Assembly (NCBI GenBank): GCA_036510525.1
Contig: DATCDU010000020.1
Location: 246 to 64,245 of the forward strand
Direction: 5' to 3'
From: Minisyncoccota bacterium
Lineage (GTDB): Bacteria > Patescibacteriota > Minisyncoccia > UBA6257 > 2-01-FULL-56-20
DNA: 64,000 nucleotides
Positions 5,858 through 29,530 of this stretch are shown here, one piece after another; position 1 is the stretch's first letter; each line of letters starts with the position of its first letter. The notes below the pieces were generated by a model that worked only from the letters and a program-made list of their open reading frames with translations, made no database searches and had not been told where the DNA came from. The position numbers were made by a program, and so were the translations under genes.

Positions 5858-5977
5858 GATTCCTCCACATTCCGCCTACTTTCCTGATCCCCTGTCAACG
5901 TTGTTGACCGCGCCATTTTCACCTATAATCTTTTTACCCTCGTCCTGGGAATCTGTAAAAATAATAGAACATAAACC

Positions 5978-6973
5978 ATGTTGATCGGCAAAGCATCCCC
6001 GGAGGATATGAACCTCCACCCAATTCAATATCAGTGGGCATACGACCTCTATCAACAGGCGGTACGCAACACGTGGTTCCCTCACGAGATCGCGCTCAAG
6101 GAAGACCTCTATGATTGGGAGAAGATGACGGAGGACGAACGCCACGCGGTGAAGTTCCTGATGGCATTCTTCAATCCGGGCGAGCTCATCGTCAACCGCT
6201 CGATTGCGCTCGGCATCTATCCTTATTTGAAGTCGCCGGAGTGCCATCTCTACCTTGCGAAGCAGATGTGGGAAGAAGCAAATCACTGCGTTGCCTTTGA
6301 ATACGTTTTGGAAACATTCCCGCTTGATCGCACGAACGTGTTCAACCTGCACCTCGACACGCCGTCGATGAAAGCCAAGGAAGATTACATCAATAAGTAC
6401 ATGCGCCGCATGACGGAAGACACGCTTGACGTCGAGACGCCGGAGGGCAAGAAAGATTTCATCCGCAACCTCGTGGCGACGAACATCGTGATGGAGGGCA
6501 TCTGGTTCTACAGCGGCTTCATGGTGGTGCTCTCGTTCCGCCAACGCAACCAGCTCCGCAACTTCGGCTCAATGATCAACTGGGTGATCCGCGACGAATC
6601 GCTCCACCTCAAGTTCGGCATGAACCTCATTCAGAATATTTTAGAAGAGAATGCCGAATTGCTCACGAAAGAATTTGCGAACGAGATCAAACAGATCGTG
6701 ATCGACGGTGTGGACCTTGAGGTGGCCTACAACAAAGATCTTTTCCCGCGTGGCATCCTCGGCCTGAATGCCGACTATGTGAACCAGTACGTGCAGTACG
6801 TCGCCGACCGGCGCCTGGAAGAGCTCGGCATCGGCCCGCACTACGGCGCGAAGAATCCCGCTAAGTGGATGGCGGGCGCGACCGACGTCCTCGAGCTCGT
6901 CAATTTCTTCGAGGCGCAGAACACGTCGTACGAAGTGGACAGCCACGCCGCCGATAAAAAGAAGGAAGCATAA
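5978..6973 (+). CDS. nrdB: Ribonucleoside-diphosphate reductase beta subunit (class Ia)
   Basis: Ferritin-like di-iron R2 motifs (..WEEANHCVAFEY..; ..DESLHLKF..); 331 aa. Confidence 0.95.
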   Translation: MLIGKASPEDMNLHPIQYQWAYDLYQQAVRNTWFPHEIALKEDLYDWEKMTEDERHAVKFLMAFFNPGELIVNRSIALGIYPYLKSPECHLYLAKQMWEEANHCVAFEYVLETFPLDRTNVFNLHLDTPSMKAKEDYINKYMRRMTEDTLDVETPEGKKDFIRNLVATNIVMEGIWFYSGFMVVLSFRQRNQLRNFGSMINWVIRDESLHLKFGMNLIQNILEENAELLTKEFANEIKQIVIDGVDLEVAYNKDLFPRGILGLNADYVNQYVQYVADRRLEELGIGPHYGAKNPAKWMAGATDVLELVNFFEAQNTSYEVDSHAADKKKEA

Positions 6974-7036
6974 CAATAAAAACAGCCTCTCGCCTCCAGG
7001 CAGATGACCGTTCGGCGAGAGGCTGTTTTTATTGTT
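6972..7036. repeat. Family-A palindromic element copy 1 (23-bp perfect arms, conserved 19-nt core TCCAGGCAGATGACCGTTC); doubles as the nrdB terminator
   Basis: Arms aacaataaaaacagcctctcgcc (6972-6994) and ggcgagaggctgtttttattgtt (7014-7036); the left arm starts inside the TAA stop codon; the core is identical to the one at 56976-56994. Confidence 0.65.
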
Positions 7037-7045
7037 TGGTATAAT
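7037..7045 (+). promoter_or_regulatory. Extended -10 promoter (TGgTATAAT) for the 7057 gene, giving a near-leaderless transcript
   Basis: tggtataat ends 11 nt before the ATG at 7057; no good -35. Confidence 0.35.
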
Positions 7046-7056
7046 AGAAAGACGTT

Positions 7057-7725
7057 ATGAATCTGAAGAATATCCTTATCACGTTGTCCATCGTCGCGGT
7101 GGTGATTGTATGCGTGGCGTTCTACGTCGTGTTCTATAGCGGCGGAGGGACGTACGTCGTGAGCTCTCTCACCGGCCCGAATGCGGACATCTTTGGCGCG
7201 GGGACCGAAAATACCAGCACCTTGGGCGCAAGCTCGACCGCCAGCTCTACGGCGTTCGCGTCGTCATCCGCGCTTGACGACACCGGCGCGTCCTCTTCCG
7301 CAAGTTCCACCGCCTCATCGTCGCTTACGACCACACCGGGCAACACGACGGTCGTCTCGTGGACCCAGGGCAATGAGGCGCTTTTGATCACCGGCGCCCT
7401 GATCTCGGGCGATCAGCTCACACTCGGCGTCCAGGTGGCGATGGGCAGCGTCAGCGAATGCGTGCCGCTTAACCTCCGCCTGATCGCCGACGAACAGGGC
7501 GATCTTTCGCCACCGATCACATCGCAGTTCACCTTTCCGGACACCGGCACCTGCAACGGTACCGCGGGCGAGACCTACAGCGCCCAGCCGATCGTCTTCA
7601 CGCTCAGCGATCCCAGCGCCTTCCCCATCGTCCTCACGACTGGCGGCACGGCCAACATCCTCTTTGAGGTCGTGCAGGATCCCGACGGCAGGCTGAGCGC
7701 CCAACTGCCGCCGAGCTCGGATTAA
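7057..7725 (+). CDS. Membrane-anchored Ser/Thr-rich hypothetical protein
   Basis: N-terminal TM helix (ILITLSIVAVVIVCVAFYVVF), low-complexity S/T/A region; 222 aa. Confidence 0.5.
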   Translation: MNLKNILITLSIVAVVIVCVAFYVVFYSGGGTYVVSSLTGPNADIFGAGTENTSTLGASSTASSTAFASSSALDDTGASSSASSTASSSLTTTPGNTTVVSWTQGNEALLITGALISGDQLTLGVQVAMGSVSECVPLNLRLIADEQGDLSPPITSQFTFPDTGTCNGTAGETYSAQPIVFTLSDPSAFPIVLTTGGTANILFEVVQDPDGRLSAQLPPSSD

Positions 7726-7791
7726 AAATTGATTAAATGACCGCTATTGAAAATCCACCCCCGTCTGCTACAATAGTATTCGTATTGTAAT

Positions 7792-8072
7792 TCCGCGATA
7801 GCTCAATGGTAGAGCGGCGCCCTGTCAGCAAGGCAGCTCGCATCGGAAACGGTGCGATGATAAAAATCTTGGGATAACGGTGAATGCTAAGTCCGCAAGG
7901 ATATGCGAATACCGTGGGAACCCTCCGCACGGGAGGGGCACCGTAGAGACTAGATACCGAGATGCCTAACACCCGCAATGGGCGGGTCATGGCAATGATA
8001 TAGTCCACGCCTCTTGGAAACATTAGGAAACGTGTAAGGCGATGGTTCCAGGTTCGAGTCCTGGTCGCGGAG
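7792..8072 (+). tRNA. tRNA-Asn(GUU) interrupted by a group I intron in the anticodon loop (alternative reading Thr-UGU)
   Basis: 5' exon TCCGCGA-TA-GCTC-AATGGTA-GAGC-G-GCGCC-CTGT (7792-7825); 3' exon TAA-GGCGA-TGGTT-CCAGG-TTCGAGT-CCTGG-TCGCGGA-G (8035-8072). Spliced product has anticodon loop CUGUUAA, U1-A72 and G73 as in E. coli tRNA-Asn. Confidence 0.75.
7826..8034 (+). ncRNA. Group I self-splicing intron (~209 nt) in tRNA-Asn
   Basis: Contains group I conserved R element GTAGAGACTAGA (ccgtagagactagatacc) and S element GATATAGTCC; 5' exon ends in U; intron ends in G before the 3' exon. Confidence 0.7.
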
Positions 8073-8138
8073 CAGTCAATATCTTTTATCGGACAGACCG
8101 AGAGGCATCGATTTTTGCTATCTTTTTTGATGCTAAAA

Positions 8139-8162
8139 GTTCGAGTCCTACTCCTATGGCAT
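8139..8162 (+). repeat. Degenerate second copy of the tRNA-Asn 3' end (T-loop and acceptor-like)
   Basis: gttcgagtcct identical to 8052-8062; continues ...actcctatggca versus the native ...ggtcgcggagca. Confidence 0.45.
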
Positions 8163-8309
8163 CTAGGACACCGAACTCAGCGCTTTAACTTGAATTTAAG
8201 TCGCGGAATTTTAATTGACATTTATATTAAAATATGTTTTACTCACACTAGCTACTCACAACTGAAAACTAGGTTGGAGAGGTGGCAAATTTCTGAAAGG
8301 AGATAGCGC

Positions 8310-11697: not shown

Positions 11698-12810
11698 TTA
11701 GGCGAAATATCTCTTAAATTGCTTTGCCCACGCCTCGGCAAGTAAAGGAGGAACAGCATTGCCCACCTGGGCATAATAATTTCTCTTATTGGACGAAGAA
11801 AGGCGGAACCAATCCGGGAATGATTGTATCCGCATGCCCTCCCGTATGGTTATCAAGCGATCAGCGGAATAATGGATGTTGCAACCGACATTCGGTCTAT
11901 TGAAATGGGTGTTCAACGTATAAGGCGTCCGATTGGGATGCAATCTTCCATAGGTAGTCGTACGGCCACCAGTTTTTTTGAAGTTCATGATCCTCTTCGT
12001 CGCTATAGAATCTGGAACGTCCATGTAGTTGCCACCGGGTTTCACTGCTTTAATGATTTCCTTATCCTTGGCACTGGCATACGGCGGGTAATGATGATAA
12101 ACCCCCCGAGATCCAATTCTCATCTTCTCTTGAAATTCACTTGATGGCTTTGAACGATACTGGAGTGGTTCATTGGAGGATGGGCGCGGCAAATCAGATA
12201 GAGCTTCCTTCGCGGTCACCCACTTTTTTAATCCATCGCCGCCATCTTCACTATGGGTAGGTTTAGGCAGTGGTATCTTCAAGCCCGAAGAAGTGCCGAT
12301 AATAAATACCCGCCTGCGTCTTTGCGGAACGCCGTAATCGGCGGCATTCAAAACGTGCGTCTCTATCCTGTAACCAGCAGCACCAAATGCCTCGCGGAGG
12401 TCGTCAATGACAGACTCACCTCTTTCATTTTCCGCCGAACGGAGACCGAGAACGTTTTCGAATAGGAATGCAGCTGGCCTAACTGCCTTCAAGACATCTA
12501 AGTAGTTCCACACAAGGCGGCTTCTAATGTCATCGGATTTGCGTTTACCAACAAGGGAAAAGGATTGGCATGGAGGACCGCCAATAACTAAATCGGCTTT
12601 CGGTATGCTTTTGAAATTCACGCCCCCTATGTCGGCACACAACGTATCAGCTTTAAAATTATTTCTGAAGGTTGTGCAAAAATCTTCAACGACATCATTG
12701 GCCCAGAGAACCTTAAATCCTTGTTCGTGAAAGCCGAGGTCTAAGCCGCCGCATCCAGAGAATAAGCTGACAATCGTTGGTTTAGCCATTTTGGTTTGAT
12801 CTGTCATCAA
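11698..12810 (-). CDS. dcm: DNA cytosine-5 methyltransferase
   Basis: Motif I FSGCGGLDLGF, motif IV GGPPCQSFS, motif VI FLFENV; 370 aa. Confidence 0.9.
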   Translation of the reverse strand: MMTDQTKMAKPTIVSLFSGCGGLDLGFHEQGFKVLWANDVVEDFCTTFRNNFKADTLCADIGGVNFKSIPKADLVIGGPPCQSFSLVGKRKSDDIRSRLVWNYLDVLKAVRPAAFLFENVLGLRSAENERGESVIDDLREAFGAAGYRIETHVLNAADYGVPQRRRRVFIIGTSSGLKIPLPKPTHSEDGGDGLKKWVTAKEALSDLPRPSSNEPLQYRSKPSSEFQEKMRIGSRGVYHHYPPYASAKDKEIIKAVKPGGNYMDVPDSIATKRIMNFKKTGGRTTTYGRLHPNRTPYTLNTHFNRPNVGCNIHYSADRLITIREGMRIQSFPDWFRLSSSNKRNYYAQVGNAVPPLLAEAWAKQFKRYFA

Positions 12811-14348
12811 CTAGATCTTTCAAGAACAACTCAGCGAAGTCGGCCAATTTCGCATTGTTTTCAAATCCACCGATTCCATGATTGATTAATACCGAAGCCA
12901 TCGCTAGATCTAAATCTCGCCTTGGAGTTTCTATTCCTTCGTCACCCTTGACGCTCTCGCCTAAAGCATCGAACTGTTCGAGCGCGGCGCACAACGAATC
13001 AACCTCTTCGGATTTAAGTTCGTCGGGATCAATGGATTTCATCCCTCTCACCATGAAAGCTTCTATTTTTAGCATGCCCTCTTGGTTACCACCCTCGAGT
13101 TCGAACTGTAATTGACCGAAAGCGGACATAAGGTATGACGCTATCACCTTCAAAGATTTGTCGTTACCAAACTTGCGACGCAACAGTCCGCTCGTATAAC
13201 AAAAATTCGTCGATAGTAAAATTCCCTGCTCAGGCGATGCTACATAAATCGCATGCTTTTCCCTAGCTGCCCGGGGGATCAATAATTCCGCCTTTACCTT
13301 GCTGTGGTATGCCGCGTCGACGACCTTCTTCCATTTAGCACGCCCGATGCGTGCCTGCGCTTCCAGAAAAAGCTTGCCAAGGCCGGTGTTTTGGAACACT
13401 TTAAGAGATGATGGCATCGACATCATTTTCTATTGCACGCTTCAGATGTTCGCCATCCTGGTTGCTTAAGAATTTTTCCATCAAAATCACACCTGCACGT
13501 CCTCGCTCCTTCAAATAGTGCCCTATCCAATCCATAAAATAGAAATAAAGGTTCGGCTGCTTCGCCTCCTCCACAATCGTTTTCCCACCATTCGCGGACT
13601 TGAGCGCCTTAATCATGGCTTGTTTGCGGCTGTCAGGTATTGGGTTCTCCGGATCGTCGTTTCGTAGAAAAGGTGGATTCATCAGCACGGCGTTAAATTG
13701 TGCCGGACGCGGATTTGAGAATACGTCCCCGTTAATGAAGTCGATTTCCGTAGAGCTGTCTACTGCATTTAGATTCTTGGCAAGTAACCGGAATGCTGCA
13801 AGCTGGTTTCCGGTCGGCGCTTGGCCCGGCCAGAGTCCCATCTCGACCCGCGTTCTGAGTCCCCGCTTCACATTCACGCTCTTATTATCGTTCTCCAGTT
13901 TTGCCTGCGAGCATAAGATCATCAGCAGAAATTTATCGCTGGGCGAATTCTTGAATCCCTGCCCGAACGTTTTTATCTCCACCAATGATTTTTGATCCAT
14001 CAGGTCCACAAGTGCCCCGAGGTCGCCCGCGTTCCTGCTCAGCCGGTCCGGCGCCCACGTGAGAATACCGTTGAACCGCGCCGCCTTCAGATCATTCACT
14101 ATTTCATTGAAGACCGGACGCTGGTTGGAATCTTTTGCCGAATGGGACTCCCGCCGGATATCGGCGACTTCCAGCCCTTCCCGCTCGGCGATCTGGAGCA
14201 TCTCCTTAACCTGCGAATCGATGGACAGCACCTGCTTCTCCTCGCTTTCGCTCGATTTCCGCGCGTAGAGCACGTATTTGACCTTTATTGGCACCTGCAC
14301 CGCTATTTGGGTTCCGCTCCCCGGCGACCCCATGGTTTGGTTTGTCAT
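12782..14348 (-). pseudogene. Chimeric, frameshifted remnant: large-serine-recombinase catalytic domain fused in frame to a gamma-class N6-adenine MTase (HsdM-like) that lacks motif I
   Basis: ORF 13401-14348 has resolvase N-terminus (YARKSSESEEKQVLSIDSQ...DRLSRN...GLWPGQAPTG), then the MTase motif IV region (IDFINGDVFSNPRPAQFNAVLMNPPF...GRAGVILMEKFL...VDAIIS). ORF 12782-13426 continues the MTase in another frame (LPSSLKVFQNTGLG...). No FxGxG AdoMet motif anywhere. Confidence 0.55.
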
Positions 14349-14435: not shown

Positions 14436-15002
14436 CTAAGCCGTTGGAAGAGCCTTTGGCGGATCAAACTTGCACCGCTCGCCATTCACTAGGCCGAAAC
14501 CGGTGAGATGGATAAAGAACAGGTCCCAATCGTCGCCGCCATCGGTCGTACTCACGCATTCGTCGTTGATGTACTTTGTTGCGCTATACTTTTTATCTTT
14601 GTCGTCGTAGCCGATTATGAGATGACAATTGTCTCCGTAGACGTTGCGATATCTCATGCAGCTCAAATAGCCATCTTTTTTGTAAGTATGGAATTCCGGT
14701 TCATAGAGAGCGCTACCGGTTACCTGTCGCCCATTGTCAATCCGTGTGCCCATATAGAGGACATTGAAGGGAAAGCGGTTCAGCTCTGGATTCCAGGAAA
14801 TCTCCAAACGCTGCGGCACGAAAGCGAATCTCGTTTTTGCGTCTTTCTTGAGTATTGCTTTTTCTTCTTTGTTAAATTGTCTCATAAAATTGCGAAACCC
14901 TGCCGCGAGGCAGGGATGATAAATGTTTGCTTCGACCTTTATCTTTCCCTTGCGGGCTGGATGTAGCACCGTATCGTTTCCGATTGGTTGCCGGTGGGTC
15001 AT
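14436..15002 (-). CDS. Hypothetical protein (188 aa), no recognisable domain
   Basis: ORF only; low-GC island context. Confidence 0.4.
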   Translation of the reverse strand: MTHRQPIGNDTVLHPARKGKIKVEANIYHPCLAAGFRNFMRQFNKEEKAILKKDAKTRFAFVPQRLEISWNPELNRFPFNVLYMGTRIDNGRQVTGSALYEPEFHTYKKDGYLSCMRYRNVYGDNCHLIIGYDDKDKKYSATKYINDECVSTTDGGDDWDLFFIHLTGFGLVNGERCKFDPPKALPTA

Positions 15003-15194
15003 TGAGCCAGTGCTCTCGCCACACTCTTGATAACTATTCAGTTGTGCTTACCATTCCATTCTAGCAAATGCTTCAAACAATACAAGCGACTTTCTCCGGT
15101 GTAAGCTTCATTTTTCCCGACCCAATGTATCTTGTATTGTTTCGCATCGCGCGGCCGATCGACGAGAAGACGAGGCGTGAAGTCGTGTATCAGT

Positions 15195-26927: not shown

Positions 26928-27539
26928 TTACATTATTCCCATAAGATAGACCGTCGTAAAGATGAATATCCAGACGATATCGAGGAAGTGCCAGAAGAGT
27001 GTGAAGCGATCCAGCTTTGAGACGACGCTCGGCGTAAGCCCCTTCACTTTGAGCTGCACGATCGCGACCGCGATCCAGAGCAGGCCAACGGCAATGTGAA
27101 GACCATGCGTTCCAACGAGCGTGAAGAACGCGGAAAGGAACGCGCTCCTCTGCCAGCTCGCGCCGGCGCTCATGAACCGCGAGAACTCACTGAGCTCCAG
27201 AGTGAGGAACGTTGCGCCGAGCATGAACGTGACGGCAAGCCACGCGATCGTCTGGTTCAATTTCTTCGACCACGCGGCGAGCGTGGCGAGTCCGCACGTG
27301 AAGCTTGAGGTGAGCAGCACGATCGTATTCGTAAGCGCCGTCGAGAGACTAAAAAGATCGTTGGACGATGGGCCACCGAACGTGCTCGCCTTGAGCACAT
27401 AATATACCGCGAACAGCACGCCGAAGATCACGAGATCGGTCATTAGATAGACCCAGAATCCGAATGCGTGTCTATCGGCTTGGGCAGCTTGGGCGGCGGT
27501 TGCGTTGGTCTCGTTCATCTTTTCCATTATTTTTTCCAT
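26928..27539 (-). CDS. cyoC: Cytochrome o ubiquinol oxidase subunit III
   Basis: Heme-copper oxidase subunit III-like 5-TM protein. Confidence 0.8.
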   Translation of the reverse strand: MEKIMEKMNETNATAAQAAQADRHAFGFWVYLMTDLVIFGVLFAVYYVLKASTFGGPSSNDLFSLSTALTNTIVLLTSSFTCGLATLAAWSKKLNQTIAWLAVTFMLGATFLTLELSEFSRFMSAGASWQRSAFLSAFFTLVGTHGLHIAVGLLWIAVAIVQLKVKGLTPSVVSKLDRFTLFWHFLDIVWIFIFTTVYLMGIM

Positions 27540-29530
27540 GCCAGTGTTTCCATTTTCTCGACCTCCGCGGCGGGGATCACATATTCCGTATCATCATCAA
27601 ACGAACGGATGATGACGCACGCGATGCAGCCCACGAACCCAAGTGCCATGAGCCAGATGATGTGCCACACCGCGCCGAACGAGAACAGGAAGAAGAATCC
27701 GGAAAGATAGATCGCCATGCCCGTGTTCTTGGACAACTCAATGTCTTCGTACTCCGTGCGCGCGGTGGCGCGCGGCCACTCCCCTCGTTTCTTCATCTCC
27801 CAAAACGCGTCACGGCTGTCCGCCTCCGGCTTTTTTGCAAAATCATAGAATGGCACCGGCGATGACGTTGCCCACTCAAGCGTGCGGCCGTCCCACGGGT
27901 CGCCCGTCGTGTCCATGTTGTCCTTGCGCTCGCGCACGCTCACGACCACCTGCCACACCTGCATGAGCACGCCGGCAGCGATGATGCAGACGCCGATGCC
28001 GGCGGTGATGAAAAATGGCTGATAGCCGGTCGCGGTAGCGTAGTAATCAAGCCGGCGTGTGGCGCCCATGAACCCCAATATATAGAGTGGCGTGAACGAC
28101 ACAAAGAATCCCACGATCCACAACCAGAACGCGCGGCGGCCGATCTTTTCGTTCAATTTGAACCCCATGATCTTGGGGAACCAGTATGTGATGCCGGCGA
28201 ATATGCCGAAAAGCGCGGCGCTCACGATCATGGTGTGGAAGTGCGCCACGAGGAAGAGCGAGTTGTGCAGCTCAAAGTCCGCGCCCGGGATGGAAAGCAG
28301 TACGCCCGCCATGCCGCCGAACGTGAACAAGCTCACGAATCCCATGAAATACATCATCGGCGTCGTGAAGCGGATGCGCCCGCGGAACATTGTGGCGATC
28401 CAGTTGAAGATCTGCACCGCCGTCGGAATGGCGATGATCCCCGTCATGATGCCGAAGAACGCGTCCACGTCCGCGCCGGCACCCATCGTAAAGAAGTGGT
28501 GCAGCCACACCATGAACGAGAGCAGGGTGATGCAAATCACGGCGCATACCATGGAGACGTATCCGAATATTTTCTTGCCGGAGAACGTGGCGACGATCTC
28601 CGAAAATATTCCGAACGCGGGGATTACGAGGATGTACACCTCCGGATGGCCCCACATCCAGATGAGGTTCACGTAGAGCATCGGATTGCCGCCGGCCGTC
28701 GTCGTAAAGAAATGCATACCGAAGAAGCGATCATACCAGAGCAGTAGGGTCGTGATGGTGAGCACCGGGAACGCGGCGACCACGAGCGCCATACTGCAGA
28801 GCGACGTCCAGGTGAAGAGCGGCATCTTCATCAGCGTCATCCCCTTTACGCGCATCTTGATGATTGTCACGATGAAGTTGATGCCACCGAGCAACGATCC
28901 GAGGCCGGAGAGCTGTAAGCTCCATATCCAATAGTCCACGCCGGTGCCCGGGCTGTACATGATCTCCGAAAGCGGGGGCAACGACAGCCATCCCGACGCG
29001 GCGAACTCGCCGCCGATTACGAAGAACATATTGATGAACACCGCGCCCGCCACGTAGAGCCAGAACCCGAGCGAGTTGAGGAACGGGAACGCGAGGTCCC
29101 GCGCGCCGATCTGCAGCGGCACGATCAGGTTCATGAGGCCAAAGAAGAACCCCATCGTCACAAAGAACACCATGATATCGCCATGCGACGTGAAGATCTG
29201 CTGGAAGTGGCTCGCGTCAAGGTAGCCGCTTGGAGCGCCGAGGTAGCCCGGGGCGTTGCCGACGGAGATCGATTGCTGCAGCCAGATCATCATTGCGTCC
29301 AATCCCCCGCGGAAGAGCATAACCGACGCCATCACGATGTACATGATCCCGATCTTCTTCGGGTCCGTCGAAGTGAACCACTCCTTCCAGAGCCATTTCC
29401 ATTTTTTGTAATACGTGATGACCGCCATAACGACGATCCCGCCGACAAAAATGGTCCCCGTCGCGCCGATCGTATACCACGCGTGCGGGAGCGCTGCCCA
29501 GGTGAGATCTCCAAGAATAAAGTGGGTCAT
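27527..29530 (-). CDS. cyoB: Cytochrome o ubiquinol oxidase subunit I (heme-copper oxidase catalytic subunit)
   Basis: 667 aa, multi-TM, conserved His ligand regions (…WGHPEVYILV…, …HHFFTMG…). Confidence 0.9.
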   Translation of the reverse strand: MTHFILGDLTWAALPHAWYTIGATGTIFVGGIVVMAVITYYKKWKWLWKEWFTSTDPKKIGIMYIVMASVMLFRGGLDAMMIWLQQSISVGNAPGYLGAPSGYLDASHFQQIFTSHGDIMVFFVTMGFFFGLMNLIVPLQIGARDLAFPFLNSLGFWLYVAGAVFINMFFVIGGEFAASGWLSLPPLSEIMYSPGTGVDYWIWSLQLSGLGSLLGGINFIVTIIKMRVKGMTLMKMPLFTWTSLCSMALVVAAFPVLTITTLLLWYDRFFGMHFFTTTAGGNPMLYVNLIWMWGHPEVYILVIPAFGIFSEIVATFSGKKIFGYVSMVCAVICITLLSFMVWLHHFFTMGAGADVDAFFGIMTGIIAIPTAVQIFNWIATMFRGRIRFTTPMMYFMGFVSLFTFGGMAGVLLSIPGADFELHNSLFLVAHFHTMIVSAALFGIFAGITYWFPKIMGFKLNEKIGRRAFWLWIVGFFVSFTPLYILGFMGATRRLDYYATATGYQPFFITAGIGVCIIAAGVLMQVWQVVVSVRERKDNMDTTGDPWDGRTLEWATSSPVPFYDFAKKPEADSRDAFWEMKKRGEWPRATARTEYEDIELSKNTGMAIYLSGFFFLFSFGAVWHIIWLMALGFVGCIACVIIRSFDDDTEYVIPAAEVEKMETLAWKK

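Follow-up and report, generated by a model that had tools for sequence, protein, structure and literature searches.

The classical group I introns of bacterial tRNA genes, those of Azoarcus tRNA-Ile, Anabaena/Nostoc tRNA-Leu, tRNA-fMet and tRNA-Arg, belong to subgroup IC3 and are small, self-splicing elements without an open reading frame (ORF) that interrupt the anticodon loop at positions 33/34, 34/35 or 36/37. Williams 2020 (bioRxiv 10.1101/2020.01.27.920355) raised the number of known intron-split bacterial tRNA classes from 4 to 21. Nakagawa et al. (mSystems 2026, PMC13011429) reported 28 introns at position 35/36 in 4,934 complete genomes, 19 of them from Patescibacteria, and in 95 complete Patescibacteria genomes found 35/36 introns in 15 tRNA-Asn(GUU) and 3 tRNA-Asp(GUC) genes. 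The tRNA-Asn introns at this site form class 'Asn.4Ug' of Williams 2020, as that work is cited in PMC13011429. One Asn and one Asp intron displayed GTP-dependent self-splicing in vitro, with the 35/36 junction sequenced, and no Patescibacteria tRNA intron was placed in subgroup IC (PMC13011429). Here we analyse a 64-kb stretch of DNA (the window, meaning the whole stretch) from an uncultivated Patescibacterium of the Paceibacteria class, a member of the Candidate Phyla Radiation (CPR), in which a tRNA-Asn(GUU) gene is interrupted by a 209-nt sequence between anticodon positions 35 and 36. We conclude with high confidence that the insertion is a compact, ORF-less and presumably self-splicing group I intron lying between U35 and U36. 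It is a further member of the family described from 2020 to 2026 and no new kind of biology.

Host tRNA and exact splice boundaries

When the exons were joined at 7825|8035, ARAGORN recognized a 73-nt tRNA-Asn(gtt) with U1-A72, discriminator G73, anticodon loop CUGUUAA and a canonical T arm. The 5' half-tRNA terminates in ...GCGCC-CUGU at 7825 and the 3' half starts from UAA-GGCGA... at 8035; CCA is absent from the gene sequence, CAG following directly after 8072. A blastn search of E. coli genomes with the spliced tRNA returned tRNA-Arg as the best match (74.7%, E=0.5) and was not used for identity.

The amino acid assigned to this gene depends on where the intron is placed. Shifted upstream by 2 nt to the 33/34 site (7824-8032), it would leave a tRNA-Thr(UGU) whose mature sequence would read CCCUGUUAAGG. 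In that placement, too, a U precedes the 5' splice site and the intron ends in G; its shifted junctions splice to a tRNA-like fold, and it is exactly the call that ARAGORN makes in intron mode. A metagenome collection was searched for copies of the anticodon arm without an intron, any base being allowed at the two disputed positions (GCGGCGCCCT-NN-TAAGGCGATGGTTCC). All 71 uninterrupted loci recovered (L123-L193) carried GT, giving anticodon GTT, and none carried TG. Thirty-four uninterrupted genes, L135 among them, were identical to the predicted spliced product at 72/72 positions, some at the syntenic position. Three loci (L135, L172 and L186) aligned with window positions 5893-7825 at 80.7% over 1954 nt, a region that includes the gene for the ribonucleotide reductase small subunit and a 222-aa ORF, and the alignments resumed without a gap at 8035-8075. 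The break is thus 7825|8035, not 7823|8033. The empty site of L135 reads ...CCCTGTTAAGG..., and because the base before 8035 is G, only one 209-nt placement gives CCCTGTTAAGG.

The intron itself marks the same boundaries. The invariant U.G pair of P1 and the covarying helix P9.0 bracket 7825|8035 exactly; a splice at 33/34 would cut inside P1, whose invariant wobble lies at U7825, and inside P9.0. Among 51 intron-less tRNA-Thr genes that ARAGORN called in the Patescibacteria loci retrieved, all those listed have G1 and U73, unlike the window gene and its split relatives, which have U1-A72 and G73. Finally, ARAGORN and tFind are documented to mis-assign many 35/36 genes as Thr(UGU) split at 33/34, the same 2-nt shift, an error corrected by sequenced spliced products (PMC13011429). 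The three independent lines (free-position scan, syntenic empty sites and P1/P9.0) agree on 35/36, and a tRNA-Thr gene at this locus is extremely improbable.

A sequence-only reading of this DNA had proposed a tRNA-Asn(GUU) with the U1-A72 pair, G73 and anticodon loop given above and a T loop, split in the anticodon loop by about 209 nt, and had preferred Asn over Thr(UGU). The joined exons display each of these tRNA features, positions 7826-8034 amount to 209 nt with the empty sites breaking at their edges, and the 71 GTT anticodons, the synteny and P1/P9.0 bear out the preference. Its remark that a tRNA-Asn intron at this position was undescribed does not hold, as such introns are already in Williams 2020 and PMC13011429.

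Structure and covariation of the intron

A secondary structure was derived by hand from the window sequence (Table 1). Homologues were collected by scanning GTDB, one genome per species, with the pattern GTAGAGACTAGATACC-N15-45-GATATAGTCC. At least 120 loci with the R...S core were found in these species representatives, nearly all in Patescibacteria metagenome-assembled genomes (MAGs; L003-L122). Alignment A1 comprises 38 split tRNA-Asn precursors and was made with MAFFT.

The predicted core P3-P9, with its P3/P7 pseudoknot, has covariation support, and the U(-1).G wobble of P1 and the terminal omega-G are likewise as expected of a group I intron. The wobble pair U7825.G7833 defines the 5' splice site, followed by one intron-internal P1 pair, C7826-G7832. 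Across the 38 sequences the four exon pairs of P1 are invariant (38/38, the splice-site pair being UG in every case) and the intron-internal pair covaries (CG17 GC13 AU7 UG1). All 8 pairs of P2 (helix 5) vary on both sides, with 87% of cells paired. P3 (helix 6) is 100% paired and 4/6 of its pairs are compensatory; the corresponding values for P8 (helix 10) are 100% and 3/4. The P4 region (helix 7) is 95% paired and shows, at the base of P4, an A-U/U-A swap in the ratio 31:7. In helices 11-12, 6/7 pairs of P9 are compensatory and the middle pair of P9.0 occurs as CG32 UA4 AU2. P6 (helix 8) is invariant and hence uninformative on covariation, and P6a was left out of the scoring because its length varies.

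Taken over the whole alignment, 94.8% of A1 cells were paired for the P1-P9 and tRNA structure, compared with 36-43% when the 3' partners were slid by 1-3 columns. Both-side changes were seen in 44/71 pairs and the covariation score was 0.481, compared with 0.151 in shuffles (0/500 shuffles reached it). Compensatory changes occur in P2, P3, P4, P5, P8, P9 and P9.0; P2, P8 and P9 are rich in them. The unconstrained minimum free energy (MFE) fold of the 209 nt recovered P2, P3, P4, P5, P5a, P6, P6a, P8 and P8a, and its stability corresponded to z=-3.45 (0/200 shuffles as stable). With the covariation and the full-length RF00028 match, this puts the feature well outside what chance would give.

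P7, which the R and S elements form and in which an A bulges beside a G-C pair, is presumed to be the guanosine-binding helix. Because the 3' strand of P3 follows the P7 5' strand after only 4 nt, the intron has no P7.1/P7.2-type insertion. The P5 motif GCUAAG...UAUGC resembles the 11-nt GAAA-tetraloop receptor and may serve as one. P10, the pairing of the 3' exon with the P1 loop, was sought by eye and nothing convincing was seen. The 209-nt intron contains no homing endonuclease ORF and is too short to hold one.

Table 1. Features of the split tRNA-Asn locus, in window coordinates
Feature	Position	Strand	Details
Promoter-like site TTGAAA-16 nt-TACAAT (with TG)	7747-7774	+	10/12 consensus matches; 17 nt upstream of tRNA position 1
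Antisense ORF, 96 aa, hypothetical	7733-8023	-	Over exon and intron; gene in public (ENA) assemblies, L001 3677-3967
5' exon of tRNA-Asn(GUU), positions 1-35, end C32-U33-G34-U35	7792-7825	+	TCCGCGATAGCTCAATGGTAGAGCGGCGCCCTGT; syntenic intron-less alignments stop exactly at 7825
Group I intron, 209 nt	7826-8034	+	RF00028 match, covariation (38 homologues), MFE fold, empty-site boundaries
P1	7822-7836	+	Exon CUGU 7822-7825 and C7826 with G7832 and GCAG 7833-7836; loop 7827-7831
P2 hairpin	7838-7857	+	7838-7845 / 7850-7857; GAAA tetraloop 7846-7849
P3 5' strand UCUUGG	7867-7872	+	Partner 7957-7962
P4 with P5 and P5a inside	7877-7915	+	P4 7877-7882 / 7910-7915; P5 7885-7887 / 7905-7907; P5a 7891-7894 / 7899-7902, GCAA loop
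P6 and P6a	7916-7942	+	P6 GG 7916-7917 / CC 7941-7942; P6a 7921-7926 / 7932-7937
R element GTAGAGACTAGA (= GUAGAGACUAGA)	7943-7954	+	P7 5' strand: G7946, bulged A7947, GACUA 7948-7952
P3 3' strand CCGAGA	7957-7962	+	4 nt after P7 5' strand
P8 and P8a	7963-7994	+	P8 7963-7966 / 7991-7994; P8a 7971-7976 / 7982-7987
S element GATATAGTCC (= GAUAUAGUCC)	7997-8006	+	P7 3' strand 8001-8006
P9.0 around P9 hairpin	8007-8033	+	P9.0 ACG 8007-8009 / CGU 8031-8033; P9 8010-8016 / 8021-8027; GAAA loop 8017-8020
Omega-G, last intron nucleotide	8034-8034	+	Directly 3' of P9.0; G in 38/38 homologues
3' exon of tRNA-Asn, U36 to discriminator G73	8035-8072	+	TAAGGCGATGG...TCGCGGAG

Relation to described introns

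The window is bacterial chromosome, encoding ribonucleotide reductase, thymidylate kinase, GreA, histidyl-tRNA synthetase (HisRS), heme-copper oxidase subunit I and a type II/IV secretion ATPase. Among named proteins, its HisRS is closest to those of 'Candidatus Paceibacterota' MAGs (85/79/77% identity), and we therefore assign the host to the Paceibacteria/Minisyncoccia class of the Patescibacteria (CPR). Among the matches listed, the nearest intron-bearing loci were also from Minisyncoccia/Paceibacteria MAGs. The protein encoded directly upstream of the tRNA matched metagenomic contigs only.

By host gene (tRNA-Asn(GUU)), insertion site (35/36), host phylum (by protein similarity) and sequence homology to published members, the intron belongs with the Patescibacteria 35/36 introns of Asn, Asp and Tyr genes, with which the window gene has the tRNA, site, phylum and Paceibacteria class in common. 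The GCAG guide of the window intron, paired with CUGU, and its ...GUG|UAA 3' junction are likewise those of the published introns, and ARAGORN makes the same Thr(UGU) mis-call for them. The nearest published example is a 205-nt tRNA-Asn 35/36 intron in Paceibacteria GCA_030583765.1 (Table S3 of PMC13011429), to which the window intron shows 74% global identity, 26% of positions differing; the two have the blocks GGGATAACGGTGAA, CCGTAGAGACTAGATACC and GATATAGTCCACGCC in common and the same compact architecture. Identity to the Tyr intron of GCA_016699995.1 was 71%, and introns of other types gave 58-61% with the same scoring. Against the two introns spliced in vitro in PMC13011429 the value was 60%, no higher than unrelated subgroups score, and the one from GCA_016700035.1 differs from the window intron by an additional insertion separating P7 from P3'.

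Further likenesses come from Table S5 of PMC13011429. The tRNA-Asn 35/36 introns of Nitrospirota and Bipolaricaulota listed there with an IA1 label resemble the window intron in tRNA and position, in a GCAGCU guide that precedes a GAAA-capped P2 hairpin, and in similar R and S elements. In contrast, they come from other phyla, are 248-347 nt long, have a large additional domain from R to P3' (~95 nt where the window intron has 4 nt), and are 60% identical to it globally. One IA3-labelled intron in the same table is, like the window intron, without a P7.1/P7.2-like insertion, a likeness to be taken as a lead only.

The window intron resembles the classical IC3 tRNA introns in being small, ORF-less and located in an anticodon loop, and in its P1 U.G wobble and omega-G. 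It differs from them in site and host: IC3 introns lie at 33/34, 34/35 or 36/37 of tRNA-fMet/Ile2, Leu or Arg, and the window intron at 35/36 of tRNA-Asn. Its R element GUAGAGACUAGA appears to be the same as that of Azoarcus. The GAAA loops on P2 and P9, together with receptor-like motifs in P8 and P5, would resemble the Azoarcus arrangement.

Distribution and possible mobility

Among the matches listed, the hosts of the intron were tRNA-Asp(GUC) (~43), tRNA-Asn(GUU) (~37) and tRNA-Tyr(GUA) (at least 13), approximate counts that rest on junction calls, and the intron always followed U35. Apparent hosts called tRNA-His(gtg) and 'tRNA-??? (gt)' were artefacts of the longest-intron choice, and inspection showed Tyr or Asp genes. 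The closest of the matches listed was a Minisyncoccia MAG (L119; intron 92% identical), followed by a Paceibacteria MAG (L094; 84%), each with a mature tRNA 100% identical to that of the window.

Several loci are titled as other phyla and carry the same Patescibacteria-type intron and tRNA body. By title these are Gammaproteobacteria (L009, L045, L050, L076 and L081), Bdellovibrionales (L097 and L101), Bdellovibrio (L034), Ignavibacteriota (L100) and Bacteroidetes (L060). Mislabelling or mis-binning of MAG contigs may account for these records, or the intron may genuinely occur in other phyla.

Intron-plus and intron-minus alleles of a 100% identical tRNA-Asn occur among close relatives. Flanking DNA of the intron-less syntenic relatives is 81-87% identical to the window, compared with 75% for the intron-bearing L119, whose intron is 92% identical; L119 and L094, with their more divergent flanks, keep introns 84-92% identical to that of the window. 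The Asp, Asn and Tyr hosts all carry C32-U33-G34-U35, the sole exon nucleotides in P1. One possible explanation, which we consider less likely than not, is that this compact (~180-230 nt), endonuclease-less sub-family is still mobile and has spread recently by reverse splicing or recombination rather than by pure vertical descent with loss. If so, the intron would occupy all three surveyed GUN-anticodon tRNAs (Asp, Asn and Tyr) because P1 needs only C32-U33-G34-U35. The pattern of presence and absence is compatible with recent mobility and, equally, with ribozyme constraint combined with repeated precise loss.

Predicted splicing pathway and the alternative of a dead copy

Judging from its consensus match, the promoter-like site upstream of the gene probably drives its transcription. 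In the transcript, the guide GCAG (7833-7836) would pair with C32-U33-G34-U35 to form P1, setting the wobble U7825.G7833 at the 5' splice site. The core would fold from the P3-P8 and P4-P6 domains, tied by the P3/P7 pseudoknot. The GAAA loops of P2 and P9 would probably stabilize it by docking in the receptor-like motifs of P8 and P5 (putative contacts L2/P8 and L9/P5). An external guanosine bound in P7 would then attack 3' of U7825. P9.0 would move omega-G8034 into the same guanosine site, and the free 3'-OH of U35 would attack after G8034, so that the ligated exons CCCUGU|UAAGG form the anticodon loop CUGUUAA.

Several points weigh against this picture of an active intron. The Rfam model Intron_gpI (RF00028) scores it at 26 bits, well under the gathering threshold of 50. 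The homologue search pattern fixed P7 and the R and S elements, so that these are invariant and uninformative on covariation. In the comparison with slid 3' partners, the MAFFT-made alignment and the window-derived structure favour the unslid register to some degree. The P9 helix of the window has two internal mismatches, and a G27.A43 mismatch in the anticodon stem is the sole blemish of the joined tRNA. A second, intact tRNA-Asn could lie in the genome outside the 64-kb window. Beyond the exons, the covarying fold, the exact boundaries, the tRNA identity and the family membership, all of which are observed, catalysis by this copy is argued from the group I mechanism and from published relatives.

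The low Rfam score has a precedent. A permissive search of 7700-8200 (501 nt) gave a full-length match (model 1-253, E=1.2e-4), and the whole window searched at the gathering threshold gave no intron match. The Rfam seed is without bacterial tRNA introns, and for that reason Williams 2020 and PMC13011429 chose their cut-offs of 18-20 bits or E<1e-4 on purpose. The sequence-only reading had called a group I intron with R and S elements and named RF00028 as the check: the elements lie at 7943-7954 and 7997-8006 of a covarying P1-P9 fold, and the model itself agreed in the permissive search and stayed silent at the gathering threshold. The identical uninterrupted genes share the anticodon-stem mismatch, and that pair is non-standard in 15/38 family members.

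These points could be accommodated if the group I intron had decayed and lost its splicing activity, the cell relying on another tRNA-Asn gene; the low score, the P9 mismatches and the sight of only 64 kb of the genome would all fit. However, none of the core helices is disrupted in the window sequence, the exons match 34 uninterrupted genes at 72/72 positions and the promoter-like site upstream is strong. Among the matches listed, the L119 intron has remained 92% identical beside flanks of ~75%, which argues for constraint on the intron. Default ARAGORN found no other tRNA-Asn in the 64-kb window, and intron-plus and intron-less copies of one anticodon rarely share a genome (PMC13011429). We consider a dead copy quite unlikely and favour a functional, intron-split tRNA-Asn gene.

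Annotation of the locus by standard tools

ARAGORN with default settings did not call the split gene and found four other tRNAs in the window; in intron mode it reported tRNA-Thr(tgt) with a 209-nt intron at position 33. Automatic gene callers place a minus-strand ORF across the locus, and an ENA assembly calls it as a gene. If it were coding, the stretch would specify a 96-aa protein. The ORF matched no family in a Pfam search, it overlaps a tRNA exon, and the variation among homologues is compensatory for plus-strand RNA helices. The peripheral stems of homologues also contain indels of arbitrary length, and a conserved reading frame is therefore incompatible with them. The ORF is most likely spurious, masking an RNA gene, and we give a protein-coding role almost no credence.

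Other features of the window

About 65 nt downstream of the tRNA-Asn gene, at 8139-8161 (+), the sequence GTTCGAGTCCTACTCCTATGGCA resembles the 3' end of another tRNA, with a T loop, the 3' strands of the T stem and acceptor stem, and a discriminator, and has no 5' counterpart. For most relatives, synteny ends just past the tRNA (~8075), and the GC content drops from 0.56 to 0.45-0.49 across 8-12 kb. The tRNA-like 3' end may be a relic of integration or rearrangement at the tRNA gene. A blastn search of a phage collection with the split gene gave no match.

A SAM (S-adenosylmethionine) riboswitch lies at 14936-15036 (-); its RF00162 score, 58 bits, exceeds the gathering threshold. Downstream on the same strand are an ORF without a Pfam match (14436-15002) and, further on, a resolvase/N6-adenine-methylase-like fusion (13401-14348) and a C5 cytosine DNA methylase (11698-12810). 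A SAM riboswitch before SAM-consuming DNA methylases would, if true, be an unusual pairing.

At 57053-57124 (-) ARAGORN called a tRNA-Ser(tga) of only 72-73 nt, without a long variable arm. A mismatch closes its anticodon stem and its T loop, GUUCAGACAC, is non-canonical; it scored 38.6 bits with the Rfam tRNA model in a local search and was absent from the whole-window gathering list. A gene for heme-copper oxidase subunit I (COX1, E=5e-136) is found at 27527-29530 (-) in an otherwise Patescibacteria genome. Patescibacteria are mostly described as fermentative, which makes the oxidase noteworthy.

Implications

The main practical value of the split tRNA-Asn gene lies in annotation. The gene escapes default tRNA finders and the Rfam gathering threshold, receives the wrong identity, Thr, from ARAGORN in intron mode and lies under an ORF that is most likely spurious. 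A MAG with such a gene therefore seems to be missing its tRNA-Asn, which lowers its completeness estimate.

For the family, the compact 35/36 intron in at least 120 Patescibacteria species representatives, compared with the 19 complete-genome cases of PMC13011429, indicates a far wider spread. The coexisting intron-plus and intron-minus alleles offer useful material on the gain and loss of endonuclease-free group I introns.

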